A stretch of DNA of 63,272 nucleotides from Neophaeotheca triangularis (GCA_054600435.1 BAAIJX010000023.1:310001-373272); one strand, 5' to 3'; counted from the first letter of the stretch, positions 47,282-63,272 are shown. Numbers and translations are program-made. The notes: generated by a model not told the origin, from the sequence alone.

Positions 47282-49089
47282 CTACGCATTGATCTCGTCC
47301 CCCACGCTGCGCCAGAAATTACATCTCTGCTCCAACTGCCCGATGCCAACATTCTCGAAACCATCCTCGGTGACCACGAACTCTTCATTACCGCCCCTAC
47401 CCCTGCTTGTACCCTTGGTCCTCCACTTCCCTTTACCTTTCCCACTTCCCCACTGGCTCAAAGTGGGTACGCCCGGCTCCTCATCCCCAGTCAACTTGAA
47501 CTTGTTAGCGTCCCCACTAGCGAGAAAGCTCGCCATGGCACCCGTGTAGCCCTCATAAATCAAGGGATCGCTCTGCTGAACCTCGTTAATTCGATTCCAG
47601 TAGATGGTGTCGCTGCCATGCTCGGCCGGGTCGATTGTGTACTCGCCCAGGTAACCGTTCCCACAACTCGCTTGCGCCATCCAAAGCGCTGGGCAGGTGA
47701 GCACGGTGTCGCGGAATATCAAGCCCGCGCGGACTGCTGTCGAGTTGTAGGAGTCCAGGGTCTCGGTCGAGCCGGTAGGTGGGTATAGGTGAGTAGCCAC
47801 GTAGTGGAAGTTGCGCGCAGAGAGGTTCGGAAGGTAGCCGCGAAGCCAGGCTTCGAAACTCGCTGTCGAGGAGTTGAAGCCGGGGTTGCCTTGTTCGGGG
47901 GTCTCGGGCGTTGTCGTCGCCGAAGACAGTCCAGGCGGAATGAAGTTCTCGCCCTCGTGCGTGTTGTGCATGCCCCAGCCGTGGTGTTGGTTGACGCGGC
48001 CGTGGGCGGTTGCTGATGATAGAGGTTCGCGGATGAAATCGTCGTCGATAACCGGGGCCCAGGTGAAAGAAGAAGTAGTGTATTGATTCTGAGAAGAGAT
48101 GTTCAAGGCCGCGGTACGTAGGATCTGGAGGTCCTGGATCTTAAGGCAGGCGAGGGAGTCCGGGCCGCTGCAATTTGCGAGCGAGGCGAATGCGTCGTAG
48201 ATTCCCTGGGCGGGTGGGGAGCTGTAGTGGTAAGTCTTTTGCCAGAAAGGCGAGCTTGCCAGGGCGTTGGTGAATAGGGGTGGGTCTGTCTTGCCGCCAT
48301 TCGCAATAGTCTGCGCAATCACGCTACCTGCGCCACTGTCGAGATTCGTCGTCAGCTTCAGACCAGGTGGTCAGTCACGAGGTGGGTCGAGGTCTACGAA
48401 CGCTGATTGACCCTGCATGGCTAGAAGGTTAGTCGGAGACGGACCGTAGCAAGACAAGGGAATGCACGCACCCAGATAGAAACGTTGCCAGGATCGCCGC
48501 CAAATTGCGCAATGTACTTTTGCACCCAAACCAGCGCAGCCTGCTGATCTAGCAGCCCGTTGTTCAGATCACTTTTCGGGTCGTCTGCAATCTCTTGTCC
48601 AGGTAGGAAGCCGAAAGCATTGACACGGTAGTTGGGATAGACAAAAATCATCTCATTTTGTTCGGTGGCATTGAGGATTGGGTAGGCCGAGGGCGGAATC
48701 TCGAAGCTCGCACTGCCTCGGATGAAGCCGCCGCCGTAGTAGGTTACGACTACGGGCTTCAACTTCTCGCCTTTCGTCCATGGTCGGCCGTAAAGGCCAA
48801 GGTACAGACAGTCTTCTGTGCCATTTGTCTCGCGCTGAGGGCAGAAGTCGAAGGTCTGCGTGCTGTTGTAGATGCCCTCCGTGATTTCATTTGGAGGCTG
48901 AGGAGCTCGGAATCGGTTCTCGCCGACCGGGGGAGCTGCAAAGGGGATCTTTTGCCAGTACGAGAGGTTGAAATCGGAGCTATATGCGCCTTCGAATGTG
49001 CCGTAGTCGAGCTCGGCGGTGAGGGTCGGCGCGGTAAGCGAGGGGATAGCAAGACCCAAGAGAGTCACCGAGCAAAGAAGCAGATGCAT
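47282..49089 (-). CDS. Secreted type-B carboxylesterase/lipase, 3 exons
   Basis: Signal peptide; IPFAAPPVG; EDCLYL; YGGGF; NNGLLDQQAAL; FGGDP. GQSAG is built with an 11-nt micro-exon (48402-48412). Confidence 0.9.
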
Positions 49090-49734
49090 TGTCTAAGTCT
49101 ATACTCTCAGAAAAAACCTACGAGGGTCAAAAGGTCTTGGATTGTAAGACGTTGTTACTTTGGTCGAGCAATATATACCGTGCGCACCTGGAAAGCGCTT
49201 GCCCTGCACGATGACCTACACGTAGTCGGCAGAACGGAGAAGCAGTATCATGGGCCGGACTGTCACAACAATAACGTTAATACTCGAGATCTTCCGGAGT
49301 GATGAGATGCGACATGGGAGGGGAAGAGAGGAGAAGAGGGGCGAGAAAAGGTAGGGAAACGGAAGTGGTGTCGGAGGCTTCGGCGATCGGATAAGCGAAG
49401 ACCGAGCGAGATGTACACCTCTAGACGTGAGGCGGACATTTAAGCAAGTATACCAAGATTTTTAGAAACACTACCTATGCGGCATAACATGTAGTATACT
49501 GTTCGTCGATAAGTGTAGCACGAATTGAAGGCGTATCTACTAGTCGTAGTATAGGTATTATAGGTAAGCCTAAGATTAAGCTAACTAATAAAGTGTTATA
49601 AACAATATATAGTTAAGATAGGAAAAGAGGATTATTAGATAAAGACTAAGTATACTAAGAACTAAGTAACTCTTTACTTAGTAATACTTAGTTAAACTAA
49701 TTACTACTAATTAGCCGTAAGTACTAAGTAGCTT

Positions 49735-50210
49735 CTAACTATAATGATATCATTAGATTACCCTAATCTAAATAAATTCTAGTAAGGATTTAGGGGCTAA
49801 AAGCTAATAGGGATAGTAATCTTTTTATTAAAAGTACCTTAACCCCTAACTATAATACTATGATGAAAATGCCTTAATTTCATTTAATTTTAGTAAAGAT
49901 TTTTAGCATGAAATTCTAAGCATTTTCATTTGTTAATAGAAGGCACTTTTATTTATAAATTCTTAACTAATACTTCTAAAATTTTGATAGTTATAATATA
50001 AGCTAAATTAGCTAGTAGAGCTAAAACCTTAGAGCATTTAAGTAACTTTTAAGGTTATAATCTAGTGTAGCCTAAAAAGTAAAGTTCTTTATACTAAGAA
50101 CACTCTAGCTAACTAGGGTTAGAGGGTATGAAGCTAGCTAACTATAATGCCTAAATGAAAAGACCTTAATTTCATTTAATTTTAGTAAGGATTTTTAGCG
50201 CAAAATTCTA
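49735..50210. repeat. Degenerate ~73-bp direct repeats in RIP-like AT-rich DNA
   Basis: CTAACTATAAT...CCTTAATTTCATTTAATTTTAGTAA.GATTTTTAGC...AAATTCTA at 49846 and 50138, with a weaker copy at 49735. Confidence 0.6.
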
Positions 50211-50249
50211 ATAGAGGGGTCTAACTATTTATAAGAGGGAGAATTCTTC

Positions 50250-51560
50250 TTATATAATGTATAAGCTATATATAATCCGTACAAGCTATACTTAGTACCT
50301 ATAGCTAAATATTAGTAGAGTTAGGTACCTATATATAAGTTCCTTAAGAAATATTATATATACATTATAATAGGCGCATTCCTATCTTATGCTATTAGTT
50401 AGTATTATGCTATACATATTCTACATTAGATAATATACCCTTATATAATATTTCTTCTAAGATAATAGCCTAAGATAGTCGAGACATGCTAATTATCCTA
50501 CCTAGTATTAGATTAAACCTAGTAACTAGAGATAAGCGACTTATATATAGATCATAACTTAGATATAGATATCCTAGCGATAATTAGCGAGCGAATCGCT
50601 ATACTTAAAGTAGAGCGAGATATACTATACTAAGCATCTACCCTTATATAACTAGAGCGCGATATAGAGACGCTAAGACGAGACGAGGAACCTGTATTAG
50701 AGCTAGGTTATACTACGACTATACCTTAAGAGTATGTAGTAAAGAAGCGTACCTTATGACTAAAGGACCTAGAAAACTATAGTAGAAAAACACTAATAGA
50801 GTTTTTATATAGGAATATGAAATGGCTTTTAATATAACCCTAGATAACTTTTAAAGTAACTACTATAAGATCATATAGGCTATATAGTTTCTCTAGAATA
50901 CCTCTACTAATTTATAGTTTAGCTACTAGTAATCCCTTAATAACTCGACTTATATAATATAGGATAACTTTATGAAGTTCTTACTAGATAAAGTCGAAGA
51001 TCTATTTAACTATAGATTAGATATAGCTAAACAGTATAATAATGCCTACTAGGGAACCTACTTAGTAAAAGACTTCATAATTTTCCTTAAGACCCTTAAA
51101 GACTAGCTCGCTCTATATAGTAAAGAACACTATATTAAGTACCTATATATAAAGCTTCGAAAAGAGCTCTATATTATCCTTATGAATCTCTATAAGATAT
51201 CTATTACATAGGAGTTACTTATAGTAAAGGTAGCTATCTTAGAGTATAATATATAAAAGAGTAGTATAGCTAAGTCGTATATAATAGACATGATGACTAT
51301 ACCTCGATTATATAATAAGTATATAGGTAATAAGAATAAGAAAGAGAATAGTAGAGATAAGAAAGAGAATAGAATAAACCTAGGCATATATATACTAGCT
51401 TTAATATAGTTAGGTAACACTAGGGTTTACTATATCTATAGCTAAAAGGGCTATATCTCTCCTACCTATCTAAAGAAGAAGGATAACCCTAATAGCCTCC
51501 TAGTTAATAATATCTAGGGAAAAGACTACATGTCCTAGATAACTTAGGATAAGTAAGCTA
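50250..51560 (+). mobile_element. RIP-inactivated Ty3/gypsy element A (gag only, truncated); boundaries approximate
   Basis: The frame from ATG 50486 reads as gag. 51428-51469 de-RIPs to a CYICGQKGHISPTC zinc knuckle. In-frame G-GGA-AAA slippery site at 51517-51523. No pol follows. Confidence 0.7.
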
Positions 51561-54500
51561 TAAGTAGATCGACCTTATACTACTAATAGAATATACCTAG
51601 GATATACTCGACTTATAATCACGACTATAGTCTATCTAAGTTACTATTATAACTATAGCGCTAGTAGGATAATAGCGGCCTAAGCTATAGAGTAGCTTAG
51701 GAGTACTAAGTATATATACTATAAAAGTATATAAGATAGCTAATAGTGAAGTCTCCTATCTACTATCGAATAGTTTCTATATTAAAGGACTATTACTATT
51801 ATTACTATTATTATGCTCTACCCTCACTATACTATAATCCTAACTAAGTTATAGTCTTAGTCTTATAATTCTATTCGATCTTAGAACCTTCTTAGGTTAA
51901 GATTTGCTTAGACATCATAGTACTATCGCGCTCGCTATACCTATAGGTCGACGACACTAACCTAGTAGACTCCCCTAATACTATTACTAGAGTTAATACC
52001 CTATAAGAATAAGAAGAGGTAGCGATAGACTAATATATAGTTCTTACTACTACTATTATAGAACTCTAATAATAATTAGTAGAGCATATAGCGTCTATCT
52101 AGCGAGCTACTAATAGAGCGACAGTCCTCTATAACGAGTCTAAAAGAGGATATATCGAACTAGAGGACCTAGTAGATATTATCTCTACCCTAGAGGTATA
52201 TAAGTAGATAGTAGACAAAGATCTACCTACTAGCGTAATGATAAAGGAGTAAAAGTCTTATATTAATATTAAGAAAGCTTTTTGCTTAGCTAAACTAATA
52301 GTTTATAGGAGTTACCCTAACCTCCTAAAAGTATAGATGTTTATCTAGTAATACGAGTATATATTTAAAATGTACCCTTATATTTACTTTTATTAGTATA
52401 AGCATATCTAGTATACTATAGGCTATCTATATAGCTATATTAGCTAGAACTAGGAGAGTAAGGAGTTATAACTTAAATATGAAGAGATAAAATAGTCTAT
52501 GTTTAAAGAATAGCTACTAGATTAGATCCTCGACCCTAAAAACTATACTATAAACATAGTATTCTAATGTTTTAGAATGTCTAGAGGGCGACCTAATCTA
52601 TTTATGACTACCTCTCGTATATTAAAGACTCCCTCTATAAGGCTAATGTCGTCTTACTACTAGAGTATACCCTCCTAACCCTTATTAAGATAGGTCTATA
52701 GGAAAATCTTAAGGCTAAGCTAAATGCCTAGCTAATAGTACTAGATAACTATTATAACCTCATTACGCTCTATACATATCTCGACGATTCGAGCTATAGT
52801 AGCTAGGATACTAGAGACGAGATAGTAGATAAGCTATATAAGACTAACTTAAAAGGTTCTAGCTATAAGAAAAAAGAATAAAACTAGAGTATAAGTAATA
52901 ATAACTCTAAACCGCGCTACTAGTATACTAATAGAATACTAGCGACTAGTATAAACTATATAGGTACGACTAATAGTAGCGAACAAAACAATAAAGCCCT
53001 TAAAGAAAACCTCTATTTTAAGTGTAGTAATAAAGGCTACTAGTAAGAAAATTGCTAAAAGGGAAAAGCTTAGCCCTAGGTCATTTAATTGTTAGCCTTA
53101 AAGGCTTAGGGTAGTAAGTAGACAGTATATTAATAGAGCGCCTATAGGTAGTCATAAAGATATATAATCATATCTACGATAGGCTATACTTTAAGGCCTA
53201 TAGGCTTATCGATATAGGAGCATATTATAATGTTATCTTAGAAGACATCGTAGTCTAGTATAACCTACTAATAAAGGGCGACTAGATTTATAGGCTATAA
53301 GCCTTTAGTGATATTAAAGCCCTAATAGTAGGCTAATGTTAACTCTATACTAAAGTCGCTAATTTAGATAGTATAGTTCAAACTATCCTATAGATGTTCG
53401 AAGTAGTAAACTAGAAGGATTATGAAATGATTCTTAGAATACCTTAGATCTAATTTACGAAAGTATAGCTTGATTTCATATCGCTACTAGTATAGTAGTG
53501 CTATAGTAGTATATATAATAAAGAAGAAGTTAAAATTATCGAGGCTAAAGAACTAGCCTAAGATATTAATAGTAGAGCATCTATCCTCGTTATTAGTATA
53601 GAAGACCTATATAGGACCCTAGTAGAGCTATAGGTACCTAAGTAGTTAGTAGAGTATACTAAGGTGTTTAAATTAGAGAAGGTAAAAGAGTTATCTCTAT
53701 ATACGCTTTATAACTACTATGTCGAACTAGTCGAGGGAAAAAACCCTCCTAGTAGACTAATCTACCTATGTTCCGAGCTAGAGCTTAAGAAAATGTAGTC
53801 ATAGATTAATAACCTACTTATAACAGACTATATTAAGCCTAGTACTAGCCCTACTAGCATACTATTACTATTTATTAAGAAGAAAAACAATAAACTTTAT
53901 ATATATATCGATTACTAAGGCTTAAACAAAATTACTATTAAGAATAAGTATCCTTTACTACTTATTAGTAAACTCTTAGATAGAGTCTATAGATTAATGT
54001 GGTTTTCGAAAATCGATTTAGTCAAGGCATACTACTATTTATATATCGCCTAGAGCGATAAGTAGAAGATAGCATTCTACTATTAGTATAGCTATTTCTA
54101 ATATAAGGTTATGCCTTTTAGACTCGCTAATATACTAGCATCATTTTAGGCCTTTATTAATAAGGTACTTATAGAGCTAGTTAACTACTACTATATAGTA
54201 TATATAGATAATGTTCTTATCTATTCCTATACTAAGGTAGAATACTATGAATATATTCGAGTAGTCTACTATTAGCTCGCTAATGCTAAGCTATATACTA
54301 GTCTTAAGAAATACGAATTTATAGTCTAAGAGATTAGATTCCTTAGTTTTATTATTAACTCTACTAGAGTAGCGATAGAGCCCCTATAGGTAGCTATAGT
54401 ATAAGATTAGCTAATACTAAAGTCCTTAAAAGAACTCTAAGTGTTCCTAGGATTCGCGAATTTCTATTGTCGCTTTATCGAGGGATATATAAAAATCACT

Positions 54501-54592
54501 ACTCCCCTTATAGACTACTTATAGTATAGTAGTAGTAAATAGTAGCTACTAGGTAAAGATGTCTAAAAATCCTTTAAAAAGTTAAAGTATAG
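51560..54592 (+). mobile_element. RIP-inactivated Ty3/gypsy element B (gag, protease, RT), truncated by element C; left boundary approximate
   Basis: Zinc knuckle (C)FKC(G)NKG(H)...NC at 53014-53055; G-GGA-AAA at 53061; protease LID(T)GA at 53205 in the -1 frame; RT KNKYPL, WFSKIDL, VMPF, YID(D)VLIYS at 54201, FLGFANFY. It ends abruptly at 54592. Confidence 0.88.
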
Positions 54593-54948
54593 TGTCGAGC
54601 GGCGAGAGCACTCGAGAAGCCGGGAGACTAGTTTTTGCTTAGGGAGGTATTGTTCATAACGGTTATGAATAATGTAGCGGGATTAGGAATCGGGTGTAGT
54701 CGAGAATTAGGGATTGTTCGTAACGGTTACGAATAATGCGTTAGGGGTTAGAAATCAGTCAGGTCGGTTATAGTATATAGAGGCCAATTTAAGTAGTCGC
54801 AATTCATTCTATATATGTCTATATAGGTAGGTATCTAAGATATAAGTGCTAGTGTAGGGGGAGGTGTAGGTATGTGAAGGGGGTAATGACAAAGTAAATA
54901 CCGTAAAACTAGTATGTCTACGAATGTAGTACAGGAGTCACCACGACA
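54593..54948 (-). repeat. 3' LTR of element C (356 bp)
   Basis: Ends are TGTCG...CGACA (5-bp inverted termini). It is directly preceded on the minus strand by a purine tract, and its outer edge coincides with the break in element B's RT. Confidence 0.8.
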
Positions 54949-54957
54949 TCCCTCCCT
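54949..54957 (-). promoter_or_regulatory. Polypurine tract of element C
   Basis: AGGGAGGGA immediately before the TGT that starts the LTR. Confidence 0.75.
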
Positions 54958-54997
54958 AGCTAGAAAGTCTCGCTACTCTATAGTAGCCCGCGCTACC

Positions 54998-57900
54998 CTA
55001 AACCACTATTAAGTTCTCCTTATCCTACATTTCCTCCGTAAGCTCCTCCTATCCTACTAGTATAGCTCCCCTCTTTCCTTCATCCTATAGCGGTAGAGCG
55101 GAGCTAGAACTTTCCGAATAGTAGAACGACTTATTCTAAAACACCCTTTTCTCTTCGTCTCGCTAATATGCCTAGACGAGCTCGTACGCCTTAACAGCAT
55201 CATCCCGGATTTCCTAAATGTACTTCCGGACGTGACGTAGGCTCTCTATAGTAATAGTGCGTAGTACTTACTAGACGTCGGGGCTCGTGTACTACAATTC
55301 GCCGACAGCTACTCTAGACAAGGCATCCTATGCCGCTAGATGTAGGGTCGCGGGAAACGGTATACGAGGAGCTCTATACTTAGTAGTATAACCGGAGGCA
55401 CTTAACGGGCTAGGCACGAAGTCGCGGTATGTAGTAGTAATGTCGCTCTACTTTCTACTAGTAGTATTCTAAAGGTACTCATGGTCTCGGTCGATTCCTA
55501 CAAACTAGGGTAGGACGGTTATGCGTTAGCGAACGGCTTTTGACGTAGTAGTGCTATAAGGTAGGCGTAGATTAGAAACGCGAACTTCGAAGGCCTTATA
55601 AGGGACCGGCTACTACTTTAAACCCCGGGCTAAGAGCTAGTCTTTCAGTAGGTTCGCGTTATTAATAGCTATAATCTCTTTCTTATAGTCTAGATTATTA
55701 GCGACAAGGAAGTTCGTCTACTCCTCTAGGCGCTAGTACATCCCCTTAACCACTATAGTGTAGTCGTCCTCGAACTCATTAAGGATACTAATACTACCCT
55801 AAATGGTGTATACGCTAGTACCGTTGTTCTATGTAAACACCGGGTTCAAATCGATGTGCCTAAATCTAGTAGAGTCCCTAGGGTACTAGTTCTTAGTGTA
55901 ATATAGGTAGGACACTAGCTAAAGTAGGCCGTTATCGCGTAAGAGAGTATATAGTAAGATTAGTACTAGGCTCTAGCGAAGGTACTGTTGAATTAGGCTA
56001 TAGTACATGTTCCTATACTAGCCCCGGTTAGACATGTTGTTTTATAGGTAGACGTCGTATATACTGAACTCGCTTTTGATCAGGTCCTTAACCTCTAGTA
56101 GCTTAGGGAATAAATCCGGAATGTTAATAGTGCCGTTCTTTTCCTATTCTTTACGCTAGGCGATAGTAACGCCGAGTCCTTCTATAATCCTCGCTTTCTA
56201 GTCCGTGTCGAGATAGCGTATCACGCTAGATTCTACCGGTTTATATACGAAAGTCTCTAAGTCATTAACATCGGCCGAGATCCCTAGTAGACATTAGACT
56301 TCGGTGTTTAGAAACTAGCGGATGTAGCTATAAACGACGTTTTTCTAGGATTGCTTCGGGAGCCTCACGATGTAGAAGATATAGTTATTAGTCATCTTAG
56401 TATCTTTCCCTTAAATAACTAACCCAAGACTCTACGCTACTAGCCTCTAGTGGGTCGTGTACACGCTATAGTGGTAGGCACTATAGCTAGTACATAAGTC
56501 TATACGATCCCTATCTTCCACGATAATACGGAAACCGGTTCTCTAGTCGTTATCGGCCTTAAGCATAACCCGTAACTATAGTAGGGCTATCTTGTCTACC
56601 TTATATGTGTATCGGCTGCCGCGGAGACTACCGTATACAGCATTGCTAGTAAACTAGGCTACCATGACTACTCGGATCTCCTCTAGCGTTAGAGAGGGTA
56701 ACTCGCTAAGCCGGGGTCCTCGTACTACTCGTGTTAGGGCCGTACCCGGGGGCGTAGCTAACATGCCTAGAGACGGAGCTGACGTTCCTACACTAGCGGA
56801 CCGGGTATAAGTGCGAGTACGAAGGGCTAAGGTAGTAGATGTAGGTATAGGCGAGGGTTATAGTGGCTAGTAATACCCCTAGAGCTAGCGACGAAGCTCC
56901 TCCGACATAGACACTATAGATACTACATCCTCCTTAATCGTAGGCATTAGTGGTATGTTAGTGTTTCGAGATCGCGGCTGTCCTATAGGGCTCGGGGAGA
57001 CGGTGCTAACGAAGCGCCCTTCTCGTCGTGGGGTCTCTAGGGCTTTAGGTATCGTTAGGGTAGTAGGATAGGTAAGGAAAGAGAGCTAGCTATCCTGTCC
57101 TCGGTATAGGGCGAGGTCGTTTAGGCGCATCTTTTTATATTTGTCGACTAGCTCCTCCACTATGTTCTATAGCTCGTTAGTAGTCCGCTTAGTCGCAAAC
57201 TTAGATACCTAGTCTATACCTACTACGTAATTAAAGTCGGCCTTAGTGTAGAAGAACGCGCGGAGTGGTTTCCCTTTTCTACTAGTCGGTTAACCTATAG
57301 GAGTTTCTTTAACAAGTCTATATATAGTCTAGATACTAGTAGTAGCACGTAGCTTCTAGAACGTCTACTCGGATGCCTAGGTATATTTAGCGAGATTAAT
57401 GAATCCCCGGGACATATTCTCTAGAGCCATGAAGATGTAGTTAATAGTTTCCGAATTGATAGCTTTAGCGGCATTAACCGGCCTATATAAAGAGAGGAAG
57501 TTCTCCTTTCGAGTAATGTGCGGGTCACGACAGCTACGGGTAGCCATGTCTTTAACCTTCCTAAACTTAGCTCTTTTCGGGGCCTACGTAGGGTCGCTTC
57601 GTGTGTAGTCATCTACTATGTATGCTAATATGTCCTAGTCTTCGCCTACTTTATGCACTATCTTAAGCATAGCGAGCTACGCGGCATCTCGAGCGCGTAA
57701 GTTAGTTATAGTAGTAATCTTTTATAGCATCTCCTTTATAGTGTTTTTAAGCTATACCTTAGAAATGCTTAAGGTGTATCGCTATATGTCGAGTGTTAGA
57801 GCTCCCTATTCGCTAGTCGCTCCTTAGGTTTAGTAGACGCTTAACTAGTTAGTAGACCTCGCTACTATAATGTTGTTAGGCGCAGGCGCGGTCGCGGGTA

Positions 57901-58054
57901 TAGCTAAGGTAGTAGTAGGGCGCATAGTAGCCTAGCTGCTATAAGTAAGGCGAGGGCTTTTAGGAGCTACTAGTTCATTCGAACTACCTAACCTAGAGCT
58001 AGCTTAGGAACCCGCACGTAGGCGCTTCGGAGTAGCTACTTACTTAGGTGCTAT
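54998..58054 (-). pseudogene. ORF3 of element C: ~1020-codon protein with a C-terminal PhyH-like 2OG-Fe(II) dioxygenase domain, RIP-inactivated
   Basis: One frame with no frameshift and only TAA/TAG stops. De-RIP reading: G(W)(C)RNMY(H)SLIQQ; LVSY(P)YYTK; DST(G)FRHIDLN (HxD intact at 55850-55858); I(Q)GSISIL(D)E...(C)TIVVKGM(H); PVP(C)KAFEVRV...LP(H)(G)...RITVLP(W)FVG; KSFYY. The start codon (ATA, presumed ATG) and true stop are uncertain. Confidence 0.75.
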
Positions 58055-58489
58055 AGTTAGCAATCTTAATCTTAACTATAGGAAAAAGAGAGAGAGAGAG
58101 ATATGAAAGTAAGGAGAAGAAGAAAAGTAGAGTTAGTTGCTCTATGTGTCGCGCGCTAAGATGTATCGGGTGTCGGTGTCGGTATCGGTATTAAAGTGAA
58201 AAGGTGTTAGTAAAGTCGTAGGTTTAGGAGAATGTGAAGTAAGGAAGTAGGTGTAGACACTAAAGGACGGAGGTGTCGGAGTAGTAGGTACTAGAGATAT
58301 CGACAAGGTTAAAGAGGTCGTAAAGGTCGGGGGGAGTAGCTACTTCAAGGCTTATCTAGAAGTGAAGCTGAACTACTCGAAGGTTCTCGTAGTGGTGCTA
58401 ATAACAGCTAGTCAGCCGGGTATAGTGTAGTTAGTGTTAATGATGTCTCGGTGTGAGTAAGAGAAGAAGAAGTAGTAGTAGTAGTGGTT

Positions 58490-58548
58490 ACTATTAGAGA
58501 GAGAGAAGAGGTAGAGGGAGCGGAGTAGGAGGGGAGGCCTCTTTTATA
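58490..58548 (-). promoter_or_regulatory. Putative internal promoter for ORF3 (TATA box plus CT-rich tract)
   Basis: The minus strand has TATAAAAG at 58541-58548, then CCTCCCCCTCC...TCTCTCTCTC, about 0.5 kb upstream of ORF3. Confidence 0.45.
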
Positions 58549-58921
58549 GGTAGCTATGTTAGCTAGCGGAGCACGTGTCGGGCATATATCACGTATATAT
58601 TGCTAACTCACGCGCTAGTAATACGAGTAGTGACTACGTGTTAGACACGCGGCATGTAACACTAAAGTGTCATGGGGCGAAGGCAATCATTATTCATAAC
58701 GGTTATGAATAATGTGATGAGCTCGGCTATAACGCCAAGAATTTATAGGGTGAAGGGAGACATTGTTCATAACGGATGTGAACAATATAACGCGGCCGCA
58801 GCGATAACACTACACTACAGGGTGACGGGAGGCATTATTCATAACGGTTACGAATAATGTAGCCACACTAATCTTCATCGGACTCTAGGTCTCTAAATTG
58901 CTCGTACTCTATCGGGTCATA

Positions 58922-61900
58922 CTAAATACTAGGAATCGAGACGAAACTAGCACTACTTCGCCTCGGTACTAGCGCAACATCAGTAGTTAGTTATAACCGC
59001 TAGCTCCTATAAGGCCCTTCCTATATAGCTAGGACGATGTCCTTAGGGTTAGACGCGTTACCCCTAGATATCGAGTGCTCTTCCGCTAGGTCTACGTTGT
59101 CCTCGTCTTACATTACGAGTGTATTATTCCTTAGGTGAAATAGTTTCAATAGTCGACTAGTATACGGCTTATCTAGTACTGTCCCATTAAGCTCCTCGAG
59201 ACGGTATAAGCCTATATTCTCCTAGACAGTTTTGACGCGATATAGACTGAGCTAGCGAGGGGAGAATTTACGGTTCGCCGTCATATTAGTATTACGTACC
59301 GAGTCGAAGAGTAACACTAGATTACCGATAGTTAGTTCCTCTAGCCTTATCTAGTGAGTCTTATCGAAGTACTCCTTATTGAACTCGTAGTAGTATCGTA
59401 AGTATAGAAGGGCTTCGTCTATCTTCTTATCCCGACGTTCGAGCTACTTTATCTACGCTACTAGTAGGTCTTCCGTCATTTAAACGCCGTTCTAGTTAAT
59501 GTTGTACTAGGTTAGGAATAACAACTCTACTAGTAGGATAGGCTCCCTACTATAGATTATAGCTACTAGAGTCATACTAGTAGTAGCTCGCACGGTAGTC
59601 CTATTAGCCTAGAGCGCGCTATAGAGTAGGTCTAGCTACGGTCGTCCGGTATCTCGACTCGCTTTAGCTAACGCATTAATGATGGTCAGGTAGCCTCGTT
59701 CTACTATACTATTAGCTTAGGGGTAATACGGCGAGATCGTAATGTCTTAGATACCGTATCCTTTAAGTAAGACGGTAGTCTACCCTTAGTTCTCTAGGCC
59801 TCTATCGTGGACTAGTTTCCTAAACACTCTATGTCGAGTAACGATATCCTCGTAAAGGAAGCGAGCTAGCCCGCGGCTCTTAGTGTTACGTAGTGGTCGG
59901 CCTTCTACCTAGCCAGACATATCTTCCCGGGTAAGGGTAATGTACTAGAAAGTACGGGATTCCGGCATTCGTACTAGGTCGACGGCCTACTTCCTACCCA
60001 CTACGTTCATATAGGTAGGGTGTAGTAGTTCTTCTAATCGGTTCTATACGCGTAGCTAACACTCCTAGTAGGTTTTAACATATACCGTAATAGTATTATA
60101 CATGCCTTCCTACTAGTACCTATCTACTACTTTCTAGTATGTCCCTTCTCTTCTATAGTGACTACTCTTATCGTGAAGTTCCTTTATTATTTGTAGTCGG
60201 TTCCGCTCTCCGTCTACTATACGAGTTAATAGCTAGTTCCTATTTATATAGCGAAACAGTTAGTCGTTACGGACTAGGAATCATATTACTTGTCGCTTAA
60301 ATGCTCGGAACTCCGATTTAGATAGGTCTATAGGCCTTCATATAGTCATGAGCTAGTAGGCGACATTTTGCGAGTACTTAGAGTAGGTAGAGTTGAGCAT
60401 ATTGTCGTTAGTAGGTTCCCCCTCCCTATTAGAAGGAGTCGAAGCTCCGTCTTCGCTACTCGCGGGCGTTAGGCTATACACTAGGAGTAACCCTACTACA
60501 TAGGTAGATCCTCGATTTTCGTTACCAGTATACGTTAGGACTAGCGCTAGGGGTAGCCCTACCGCTAAGGCTAGTACTCTACTCCTACTAATAGTAGACG
60601 TTAGGCCTAGTGCCTAGGGCAGCCCTACCGAAATGCTGTCGAGATAGACGTCAACCTAGTCGTCGATGTCTTTAGTATTAACCGGTCTATTAGACTTCTA
60701 GGATAGGCCGTTAGCAATGACGTTTTTCGTACTAGCGACATGTCGTATGTCGAAATCAAATAGTTGAATCTAAGCTAGCTAGCGAGTTACTATAGTATTC
60801 GGCACGTCTAACGTAACCTTGTTAAGCTAAGTAACTAGCGTGTTAGTGTCTGTTTTGACTACAAACCTCGTACCGTAAAGGTATAGCCGTAACCTTTTAA
60901 GAGCGATTATTAACGCCCGGCACTCGAGCTTAATAGCATCATATTTCTACTCGCCCTCGTTCTAGAGACCGCTATTATACTGGATAACTCGTCTTTTTGC
61001 GCTAGCAACTTCTTGTTATAAGTAAAGTCCCTAGCTAGTACTACATGTATCGACTATAAGAACTAGTTAGCCTACGTCCACGCCGTATTCAACCGGGGCT
61101 ACGATCGGGAATTTCATCAGCTACTCTTTTAGGTCCGCCATTACCGCAGCTTGTTCCGGTCCCTAGATAAAAGGTATATCTTTCCGCGTAAGCGCAATAA
61201 TCGGTCTCGTATACTATATAAATCCCTAGATCAACTACTTGTAGTACGTGTACATTCTAATAAAGTCACGAGCTTCACGTAATGTGCGACACTTAGTCTA
61301 CTCAGTAATAGCTTCAACCTTTAAGCGCGACGGCTTTATACTACTAGACGTGTATATAAAGCCGACAACCTCAAGCTCCTCGGAAAGGAAGTACAATTTC
61401 CCTATAGCGATAGTACATCTAGCTCGCTCTATGTCCGCGAGTAGTCAGTCTAGTTTCCGGATATAGTTGTAGACCGGGAGCCTAATACCGGGTAAAGGGT
61501 TAGGGTCGCCCTAGGAGTCACTACGGTCGCTAATAGCGACGATGTCGTCGACATATAGGACGGCGTCATGCGGATATAGTACTATGAGCATCCACATCAT
61601 GACTCGGCAAAAGACAGCTACTAAGTTCGTCTAGCCTATTAGTAAGGTTATCTGCCTTAGGAGCTCTAATAGAGTCATGATGGCTATCATGTTGCGACTT
61701 TCTTCGTATAACTAGATTTCGTTATATCTAGAGAAAACGTCATATAGTGAGAGGAGTAGTCTACCCGTAACATGGTAGACGAAGCTCGCGAGATCCGGTA
61801 ACATTATAGCGTCTCGAACTGTAACCGAATTCAGGATAGTAGCTAAGTTAATTAGCCTATGTTTACTATTCTTCTTTTTAACTAGAAACTAAGGATTCCG

Positions 61901-62941
61901 GTATTGTCCTTAGCTACACTTAAGGACACCGGCTTTTAGTCGGTCTTCTAACATCTCGACGAGCTCCCTAGATAAAGCTTTTAGCACGGGATATGTCTTA
62001 GCCTACTAGGCTTTATAGGGTACTGTTCTCATCTTAACTAGAGGGTACATGTCTTCGTGGATTATGCTACACTCCTTAAAGTCCTAGGTAAGGGCTAGCT
62101 CATAGGCTATTAATATCGCTTCGAATAGCCGACGTTCTTCTAGTAAGAGCGTGATGTCAACTATTACTCCTACTATCCGCTCCGGGGTCAACCTATAGCC
62201 TCTTAGCTCTTATGTATATCGCGGTTTGAAGTGGCTATTATACTTAGAGTAGGCGATAAGATCTTTCGGTATACTCTTAATCTAGCGCTCTATAGCTTTC
62301 TTTCGCCAATCCAATTGTCTACTAGGAATTTCGGACAGGATAGTACTCGAGTCGTCGATAGGAACTACCTTGTCTACCTTCTGTTTAGCTATAGTCATGA
62401 CACTGAAATCCTCCTTTAGTAGTAAGGTAGGGTCGGAGGCGAGAGCTATAAGTTCTAAAGGTTTTACACTCTACGAGAGCTTCACACTATCTACTGTCAT
62501 GCTAGACCTCTATACGTAAGAGACCCTACCTAGGGTATTGTTCGTAGTAGTTATGAACAATGCTCGGGTACTAGTCGTGGAGTTAGCGGAGCGTCTAGGT
62601 GTCACGTGACTAGAGGCATTGTTCGTAGTAGTTACGAATAATGCTCGGGTACTAGTCGCGGAGTCAGCGGAGCGTCTAGGTGTCACGTGACTAGAGGCAT
62701 TGTTCGTAGCGGTTACGAACAATGCTCGGGTACTAGTCGTGGAGTCAGTAGAGCGTGTAGATATCACGTGACCGGAGGCATTGTTCGTAGCGGTTACGAA
62801 TAATACTCGGGTCGTCGTAGTGTTATCGGTCGCTTCGCGAATAGTAGGATTGTTCGTAACGGTTATGAATAATGATTTGCTTGGTTCTCGGTAGGTATTA
62901 GCGGTAGTAATCGAACCTACTTGTCCGCCCTACCTTTTAAC
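58922..62941 (-). pseudogene. pol: pol of element C (RT, RNase H, integrase; no chromodomain seen)
   Basis: RLTPER; YRNP(W)FLVKKKN; YVDD at 61544-61555; RNase H KLECRAL...KTD...LFDFDIRHV; integrase LHD..(G)H...VKT(C)(Q)EC; AVDLV; ISPYYP(Q)AN(G).VERG. Confidence 0.9.
62537..62873. repeat. 81-bp tandem repeats (about 3.5 units), each with a 25-bp palindrome, in frame within pol
   Basis: Palindrome copies start at 62537, 62618, 62699, 62780 and 62849. The unit encodes TSTRALFVTATNNASSHVTPRRSADSA. Confidence 0.9.
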
Positions 62942-63151
62942 GAATGAATAGAGGACGCGCTCTGATCTACACGTACTACGTACATGCCGACACCATTAAG
63001 GGAGAAATGGTCTCTAGCTTTAGAATCCGAGCCCACTAGTCGACGAATTCCTATACTAGGGACAAAGTCCGTAGTCGCTAAACCATCCTCGCTAGTGACC
63101 CGGTAGGTGACTTTACCCGACGGATTCCTCCGAACTTCGAGGGAAGTGCGA

Positions 63152-63272
63152 TAGGGTTAGGGTTAGGGTTAGGGTTAGGGTTAGGGTTAGGGTTAGGGTT
63201 AGGGTTAGGGTTAGGGTTAGGGTTAGGGTTAGGGTTAGGGTTAGGGTTAGGGTTAGGGTTAGGGTTAGGGTT
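63152..63272 (+). repeat. Telomere (TTAGGG)n
   Basis: TAGGG, then 19 perfect TTAGGG units, then TT at the window end. Confidence 0.99.

Follow-up and report, generated by a model that had tools for sequence, protein, structure and literature searches.

A candidate cis-regulatory or self-recognition palindrome in three arrays of a Ty3/gypsy-type retroelement at a chromosome end of Neophaeotheca triangularis

We analyzed a 63,272-nucleotide stretch of DNA from Neophaeotheca triangularis (GCA_054600435.1, BAAIJX010000023.1:310001-373272; referred to below as the window) and found that a degraded retroelement next to its telomere, designated element C, carries ten copies of one 25-bp palindrome in three arrays. 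These arrays are a good lead for a candidate cis-regulatory or self-recognition motif. Our preferred reading, to which we assign a probability of roughly 0.4, is that the palindrome is a predicted duplex-DNA site for a dimeric protein, which would have been amplified by tandem duplication in non-coding spacers. We favor this reading because the motif is element-specific, with ten copies in 8.2 kb and none in the other 55 kb, because its core is far better conserved than its flanks, and because all three arrays fall in non-coding gaps of a mostly coding element.

Ten copies of one palindrome

The original prediction, made from the sequence alone, had placed ten palindromes at 54649, 54713, 58689, 58762, 58834, 62537, 62618, 62699, 62780 and 62849. 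A transition-tolerant scan with the pattern ATTRTTYRTARYNRYTAYRAAYAAT (C/T and G/A allowed) recovered all ten, compared with 0.00 expected from 100 shuffles. Nine copies match this pattern without a mismatch, and the copy at 58762 has two. When the consensus given in the original prediction was searched with up to three mismatches, eight matches were returned in the window. The pattern found no further site in the rest of the 63,272 bases, in agreement with the claim that the motif is absent outside element C. The copies form three clusters:

54649-54737, minus strand: cluster P2, within the putative 3′ long terminal repeat (LTR), a pair of palindromes (54649-54673 and 54713-54737) with a spacing of 64 bp
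58689-58858, minus strand: cluster P3, three palindromes (58689, 58762 and 58834) in units of 72-73 bp, in the spacer between pol and the third open reading frame (ORF3)
62530-62873, minus strand: cluster P5, with an 81-bp tandem repeat (62530-62812) that holds four of its five palindromes, and a last copy at 62849

The spacing is 64 bp in P2, 73 and 72 bp in P3, and 81, 81, 81 and 69 bp in P5, where Tandem Repeats Finder reported a period of 81 with 3.5 copies and 90% matches. Additionally, three P5 units carry GTCACGTGAC, a palindrome containing CACGTG, at 62603, 62684 and 62765.

All ten copies were found on the plus strand of the window and in a single orientation, as the center base on that strand is G or A and never C or T; an asymmetric flank, ..GGAGGC on the 5′ side of the core, marks the same orientation a second time. 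The symmetry extends to GC...GC in about half of the copies, giving 14-bp arms and a palindrome of 29 bp. Approximately 15 nt upstream and 13 nt downstream of the core are weakly shared between clusters, and therefore the thing that is repeated appears to be a directional unit of at least ~55 nt, of which the palindrome is the best-kept part. A half-site scan gave two isolated matches (49595 and 60186), neither with a partner arm, which we read as chance occurrences in AT-rich DNA. An exact scan with the 23-nt core gave no match in bacterial and archaeal genomes, a collection without fungi that is uninformative on relatives. The in-frame translation of the P5 array, compared with 647 candidate proteins of 75-240 amino acids, gave no match at E ≤ 10, and a full-text literature search with the central 11-mer returned no paper on fungal transposons, as judged by title. 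The motif may also resemble B-box, Myb, HMG and Zn2Cys6 sites (ATTGTT, TAACGG, TCG-N9-CGA).

Between clusters, the 25-bp core shows 84.5% identity with 14.6% transitions and 0.9% transversions on an ungapped alignment, while the flanking 13-15 columns show 28-36% identity and 40-44% transversions. The longer flanks of the three clusters aligned no better than shuffles in 14 of 15 pairwise comparisons, as the claim of cluster-specific flanks had implied; the sole exceptional pair (score 36 versus 23.6 ± 3.9 in shuffles) was unconvincing on inspection. As the core is nearly free of transversions amid randomized flanks, it appears to have escaped the divergence of its surroundings, so it was probably the palindrome, rather than the whole unit, that was held constant before repeat-induced point mutation (RIP). 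The changes within the core, to judge from their kind, are RIP-type damage common to the whole element. Over the ten copies, there are 28 departures from the consensus, of which 27 are transitions, much as had been predicted, and one is a transversion; 22 of the 28 are C>T or G>A. As a separate observation, 13 of the 27 transitions occur at CpG and turn TACGAA into TATGAA. This local concentration at CpG contrasts with an element-wide observed/expected CpG ratio of 1.23 and with RIP acting mainly at CpA.

Compensatory substitutions between the arms had been proposed as a check and did not emerge. Arm covariation was 0.238 compared with 0.206 ± 0.024 in shuffles, a value reached in 59 of 500 shuffles. 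Changes on both sides occur in 2 of 14 arm pairs, at CpG sites that are symmetric mutation targets, and these double changes, found in three copies, combine a CG-to-CA change in the left arm and a CG-to-TG change in the right one. Because each strand is thereby hit at the same C within an identical ACG context, double changes follow automatically from a symmetric mutation target. The double changes newly created nine CpA/TpG dinucleotides, all of which are still unmutated, whereas 9 of 20 arms carry a mutation at the original CpA of AACAAT, which suggests that the double changes are as late as RIP itself.

Element C at the chromosome end

The window runs into a telomere and so includes the end of a chromosome. 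That element C lies on the minus strand and abuts the telomere was missed by the original prediction. The features around the arrays are as follows:

49300-54593, plus strand: element B, an older, more heavily RIP-mutated retroelement of ~31% GC
54594-55030, minus strand: putative 3′ LTR of 437 bp, 5′-TGTAGG...CGACA-3′, present in a single copy and with putative boundaries
55064-55083, minus strand: purine tract GGATGAAGGAAAGAGGGGAG, putatively polypurine-tract-like, directly after the likely ORF3 stop (55087-55085)
55087-57925, minus strand: ORF3, RIP-inactivated, from the first in-frame ATG (57925-57923), a putative start
58083-58548, minus strand: putative promoter-like stretch in the pol-ORF3 spacer, with TATAAAAG at 58548-58541
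59040-62431, minus strand: pol remnant with reverse transcriptase (RT), RNase H and integrase and 58 in-frame stops, read with X at stops
62874-63151, minus strand: 278-bp interval between P5 and the telomere, of RIP-like composition, with no pol relative matched
63152-63272, plus strand: telomere (TTAGGG)n, 20.2 copies with 100% matches, reaching the end of the window

In the sense of element C, the order is thus the telomere, the 278-bp interval, P5, a pol that lacks its N-terminus, P3, TATAAAAG with pyrimidine tracts, ORF3, the purine tract and the LTR with P2. On its domain content, element C is a Ty3/gypsy-type retroelement that lies on the minus strand, is heavily RIP-mutated and lacks its 5′ part. 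RT, RNase H and integrase follow each other on one strand in the order that characterizes Ty3/gypsy elements, with matches to RT_RNaseH (7.2e-15), RT_RNaseH_2 (3.6e-11) and Integrase_H2C2 (4.9e-08), and the YVDD box is readable in the translation. The best relative of pol is a 1495-residue "pol protein" of Colletotrichum asianum (P0003; E = 1.2e-152, 37% identity), residues 351-1380 of which align to 62404-59138. The first 350 residues of P0003, including the protease (DTGA), match nowhere in the window. A primer-binding site, gag and protease are likewise absent, the telomere standing in place of the 5′ part, and no long direct repeat that could represent a pair of LTRs was found. A tRNA scan returned no genes.

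At the other end of element C, a TGTAGG...CGACA segment starts ~35 nt past the purine tract and ends exactly at the junction with element B. We infer that the tract and the segment are a polypurine tract and a 437-bp 3′ LTR, the one LTR present; on this reading, ORF3 would be an internal gene of the retroelement. The outer end of the putative LTR coincides with a sharp shift from ~31% GC in element B to ~44% GC, and the RT of element B (53805-54536, plus strand) breaks off at this composition change (~54594). Because the element B RT is cut exactly at the terminus of element C, the latter appears to have been inserted into the former. pol and ORF3 are alike in strand, frame and degree of RIP. 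An origin of the three clusters from LTR copies was considered and rejected, as 14 of the 15 flank comparisons fell within shuffles, and the similarity over 16 nt between the LTR end and 62431-62447 was unconvincing as evidence of an LTR copy. A circularly permuted or tandem element with gag and protease hidden in ORF3 was also rejected, given the unmatched first 350 residues of P0003 and the assignment of ORF3 to another family.

GC content is ~55% in gene-rich DNA up to ~49 kb, ~31% at 49.3-54.6 kb and ~44% at 54594-63151. The RIP index TpA/ApT is 1.7-2.0 in the ~31% and ~44% GC blocks compared with 0.71 in genic DNA, and the index (CpA+TpG)/(ApC+GpT) is 0.29-0.42 in the two low-GC blocks compared with 1.15; CpG is not depleted in the RIP-mutated blocks. 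The last palindrome lies 279 bp from the telomere, and the junction between element and telomere reads ...GGGAAGTGCGA|TAGGGTTAGGG. The missing 5′ part of element C (LTR, gag and protease) is consistent with breakage or erosion followed by telomere addition. The stop-riddled interval next to the telomere has one frame (62925-63150, minus strand) with 75 codons uninterrupted by stops, which may derive from the protease-linker region in a frame differing from that of pol. The last intact-looking host gene ahead of the repeat block, at 48500-49100 (minus strand), is a carboxylesterase (Pfam COesterase, E = 1.6e-32), the match being partial at the border of the scanned stretch.

The gene map makes ~73% of element C coding and ~27% non-coding, and it is compatible with the contexts "LTR" and "upstream of ORF3" that had been proposed for the first two arrays. 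P2 lies 55-145 nt from the putative 3′ end of the 3′ LTR. P3 starts ~180 nt downstream of the last read-through stop in the pol frame (near 59020-59040; the last aligned pol residue is at 59138) and lies 141-310 nt upstream of TATAAAAG. The third array had been described as lying in pol. However, P5 lies entirely 5′ of the point (62404-62431) where homology to pol becomes detectable, and the protease-RT linker of the two nearest pol relatives contains no repeat like P5. Read in the pol frame, the array has no stop for 136 codons, which, for one of six frames, is weak evidence for coding. A position within pol is therefore not supported.

Filamentous-fungal core promoters usually consist of a TATA-type box with a pyrimidine-rich stretch. 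The most pyrimidine-rich minus-strand windows of the whole element are at 58546-58490 and 58131-58080, and TATAAAAG abuts one of these two. The promoter-like stretch also contains (CT)n at 58087-58101 and lies ~600 nt upstream of the first ATG of ORF3. Together, TATAAAAG and the pyrimidine tracts resemble a core promoter of this kind.

ORF3 and its dioxygenase family

The original prediction had paired the motif with ORF3 as a self-targeting protein. Our analysis places ORF3 in a family of 2-oxoglutarate (2OG)/Fe(II) dioxygenases and recognized no DNA-binding domain in it, so the pairing is not supported. Of the 1081 codons in the ORF3 read-through (58003-54760), 66 are in-frame stops. Among 1.84 billion representative proteins searched, 365 matched at E ≤ 1e-3, 25 of them at E ≤ 1e-30. 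By profile comparison, residues 514-974 of the read-through (~56464-55082) match the C-terminal part, with CxxH and the dioxygenase region, of a family of ~900-residue proteins (probability 100, E = 4.7e-52), and the alignment needs no frameshift; the N-terminal ~510 residues of the read-through have no detectable match.

The C-terminal region of the family carries the motifs FRHxDxN, LPHGST and RRTxLPWF. H99, D101, H197 and R208 are invariant or nearly invariant among the relatives and correspond to an HxD...H iron triad with a 2OG-binding arginine. An AlphaFold2 (AF2) model of a relative, with a predicted local distance difference test score (pLDDT) of 95.3, was matched by Foldseek to 7twe, 6akz, 4rgk, EvdMO1, TlxI and FtmOx1, with E-values down to 2e-7 and template modeling (TM) scores of ~0.5; the double-stranded β-helix fold matches DUF1479/Gig2, YbiU and other 2OG/Fe(II) dioxygenases of the PhyH clan. 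Pfam PhyH reached the cut-off in 4 of 41 relatives and was found below it in 11 more. As judged from these models and motifs, ORF3 is a dead copy of a ~900-residue family with a C-terminal 2OG/Fe(II) dioxygenase domain of the PhyH/Gig2 clan. The copy in the window retains FRHIDLN, and its distal histidine is replaced by tyrosine.

The family architecture comprises an N-terminal helical domain, a disordered linker, a CxC...CxxH motif and the C-terminal dioxygenase. In the model of a full-length relative (P0009), N-terminal residues 45-275 are helical. A fold search with the whole model returned only dioxygenases and hence no classified fold for the N-terminal domain of the relatives. DUF3723 was tried as an assignment for the N-terminus and rejected (Atlas lead of 0.79, below a useful score; Pfam 0 of 41). 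A word-index search with the relative P0010 returned only the name "hypothetical protein". One further relative, P0078, also carries a Ulp1 protease domain.

Situated between integrase and the polypurine-like tract, ORF3 looks like retrotransposon cargo. A limited literature search found no case of a PhyH/Gig2-clan dioxygenase as retrotransposon cargo. An ALKB domain reportedly occurs in orchid Ty3/gypsy elements, where it has been discussed as protecting the element against silencing or RNA modification. TET/JBP 2OG/Fe(II) dioxygenases are carried by fungal DNA transposons and have been discussed as an aid against silencing, and the excerpted text of that survey reports no retrotransposon that encodes a TET/JBP enzyme (PMC12730594). 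Element C resembles both cases in being a mobile element with an extra 2OG/Fe(II) dioxygenase gene, but the fold of ORF3 matches the PhyH/DUF1479 (Gig2) clan instead.

Possible roles of the arrays

Overall, we propose a putative sequence of events for the arrays of element C. The palindrome would be the conserved core of a directional unit of ~55-80 bp native to retroelement C. During the active life of the element, this unit would have been amplified by tandem duplication in the 3′ LTR, in the pol-ORF3 spacer and in the spacer 5′ of RT. The protein that would bind it may be a host transcription factor or a factor encoded by the element, and the arrays may act as modules of the enhancer or upstream activating sequence (UAS) type, with P3 serving an internal promoter of ORF3 and P2 and P5 serving LTR or upstream control. 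RIP would later have inactivated the element, whose 5′ part would then have been lost when the chromosome broke or eroded and a telomere was added. In this scheme, we infer the LTR boundaries, the promoter and the binding of a protein to the motif.

Beyond the specificity, conservation and placement of the motif, four further points argue for a protein-binding DNA site. P3 has a TATA/pyrimidine context. Three of the P5 units carry a second palindrome, with CACGTG, at fixed spacing, as would be expected in a composite enhancer unit. The arms kept their sequence and not just their pairing, since covariation was no higher than in shuffles. Finally, the anatomy matches that of the VANC21 target arrays, as far as the excerpted text describes them (PMC5735166). 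We estimate the chance that random insertion into a dead element would produce the observed placement at roughly 1-2%.

Several points weigh against a protein-binding DNA site. The constraint was deduced from ten paralogous copies within one dead element, and the ungapped comparison may overstate the divergence of the flanks. P2 lies only 55 nt from the putative LTR end, downstream of the TATA-like runs of the LTR, an odd location for an upstream enhancer, and TATAAA occurs ten times on the minus strand of the RIP-mutated element, which weakens the "promoter" next to P3. Additionally, a perfect palindrome of 25-29 bp is long for a eukaryotic transcription factor site, and the spacings of 64-81 bp show no helical phasing. 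A symmetric site does not need its copies to be co-oriented, and their shared orientation is just as compatible with simple duplication or with a strand-specific (RNA) role.

The co-orientation of all ten copies with respect to element transcription raises the question of an RNA signal, either a hairpin of 12-14 bp in the sense transcript or pairing between two genomic RNAs. Such a signal, repeated after each coding block, might serve packaging, dimerization, nuclear export or 3′-end formation. Comparable features are the direct repeats on either side of src in Rous sarcoma virus and the palindromic PAL sequences of Ty1. Folding gave -17.9 kcal/mol (z = -7.0) for the best-preserved copy and -7.8 to -10.4 kcal/mol for the P3 copies, but three of seven minus-strand copies that were folded score only 0 to -4.8 kcal/mol, albeit as post-RIP sequence. 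P2 lies near the 3′ end of the LTR, at the expected R/U5 place, and each array follows a coding block by ~180-430 nt. Against this, covariation did not exceed that of shuffles, so that sequence rather than pairing was conserved, the 1-nt center forces the apical pairs open, and A>G at position 11 in four of five P5 copies leaves a mispaired C.A in the sense strand. A search of 54000-63272 against Rfam gave nothing at E ≤ 1. We consider an RNA role rather improbable. Slightly higher, although still unlikely, we place a functionless by-product of replication, in which hypervariable repeats arise by template switching of reverse transcriptase or by illegitimate recombination at a hairpin-forming sequence. 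This would account for unit lengths that vary by cluster (64, 72-73, 81 and 69 bp) and for the location of P3 downstream of integrase, and the Ogre arrays downstream of gag-pol, with their variable monomers, are ascribed to abnormal strand transfers in the excerpted text of PMC7004042. However, it leaves unexplained why a core shared by three places has only 0.9% transversions amid randomized flanks and how one core came to seed three arrays in different places.

A short non-autonomous mobile element with the palindrome at its end, for example a Helitron-like unit with a 3′ hairpin and CTRR or a miniature inverted-repeat transposable element (MITE), could have entered by nested insertion and then been amplified locally in tandem, which would explain why the flanks differ between clusters. 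Helitron 3′ termini have a hairpin 10-12 nt ahead of a CTRR end, with TC at the 5′ end of the element and insertion between A and T. In 6 of 10 copies, YTAR follows the palindrome at a distance of 10-13 nt, compared with a background of 4% per position, and the P5 units are readable as TC...hairpin...CTAG. Nevertheless, common descent of the unit explains the shared YTAR as easily, CTAG-like words are common in RIP-mutated DNA (4% per position), the TC/CTAG pattern is not present in the P3 units, and the P5 units abut each other directly without an A|T host site. With no target-site duplications, no copy outside element C in the window, and all three sites in non-coding gaps and in one orientation, such insertions appear quite improbable. 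Least probable of all, and barely credible in our estimate, is a host subtelomeric repeat, a chromosome-end satellite with a 72-81-bp unit into which fragments of pol and ORF3 were recombined. The arrays do lie 0.3-8.6 kb from the telomere, with the largest array nearest to it, but ORF3 ends directly at the polypurine-like tract and at the LTR-like terminus that cuts the element B RT, and the shared strand, frame and RIP degree of pol and ORF3 give the layout of one inserted retroelement.

The original prediction had likened the arrays to the VANC system of plants, and this likeness stood for the array anatomy but not for the element type, the kind of motif or the accessory protein. In VANDAL21 of Arabidopsis, the VANC21 motif is described as dense and same-oriented in upstream regions and introns, as evolving by tandem repeats and as rare elsewhere (PMC5735166). 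In both systems, a short element-specific motif is present in many copies, in one orientation, in non-coding DNA and built by tandem repeats (PMC5735166), and here all ten copies share one strand and occupy three non-coding gaps, the rest of the window having none. In contrast, VANDAL21 is a Mutator-like DNA transposon, whereas element C has the RT, RNase H and integrase of a Ty3/gypsy-type retroelement. The VANC21 motif is 9 bp long and is not described as a palindrome in the excerpted text, and its binding was demonstrated there by chromatin immunoprecipitation (ChIP) and electrophoretic mobility shift assay (EMSA) (PMC5735166), compared with a palindrome of 25-29 bp that is known here from sequence alone. 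The accessory protein here, moreover, belongs to a dioxygenase family with no recognized DNA-binding domain. The arrays of element C thus appear closest in anatomy to those of VANC21, but on these features element C is not a member of that system. A VANC-like self-recognition, in which the ORF3 dioxygenase would be recruited to the arrays, directly or via a partner, and would oxidatively remove a repressive mark to counter heterochromatin- or RIP-linked silencing, is in our view very improbable.

Plant Tat/Ogre elements also have short, one-orientation arrays with a variable monomer downstream of gag-pol, in their 3′ untranslated region (UTR), but these are plant lineages, and the excerpted text mentions no palindromic core shared across sites and proposes no role (PMC7004042). 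A further comparison is with the tandem enhancer repeats in control regions of retroviruses and LTR retrotransposons, which hold transcription factor sites. Simian virus 40 (SV40) and murine leukemia virus (MLV) carry enhancer repeats of 72-75 bp, and Ty1 has sites inside TYA. Element C is like these in its direct repeats of ~70-80 bp, including sites in the element body, but differs in that one core occurs at three separated sites and that the LTR copy lies near the 3′ end of the LTR.

As element C is one dead copy at a chromosome end, it offers a lead to intact relatives rather than a demonstrated mechanism. With its PhyH/Gig2-clan dioxygenase gene between integrase and the 3′ LTR, the element may carry a type of cargo that is new for retrotransposons, and the VANC-like reading, if true, would mean an anti-silencing enzyme that is encoded by a retrotransposon and targeted by sequence. 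Should the arrays prove to be control sites, they would provide a compact and testable handle on how a fungal retrotransposon is switched on, in the form of one 25-29-bp palindrome that occurs at three sites and lies next to a possible internal promoter for an accessory gene.

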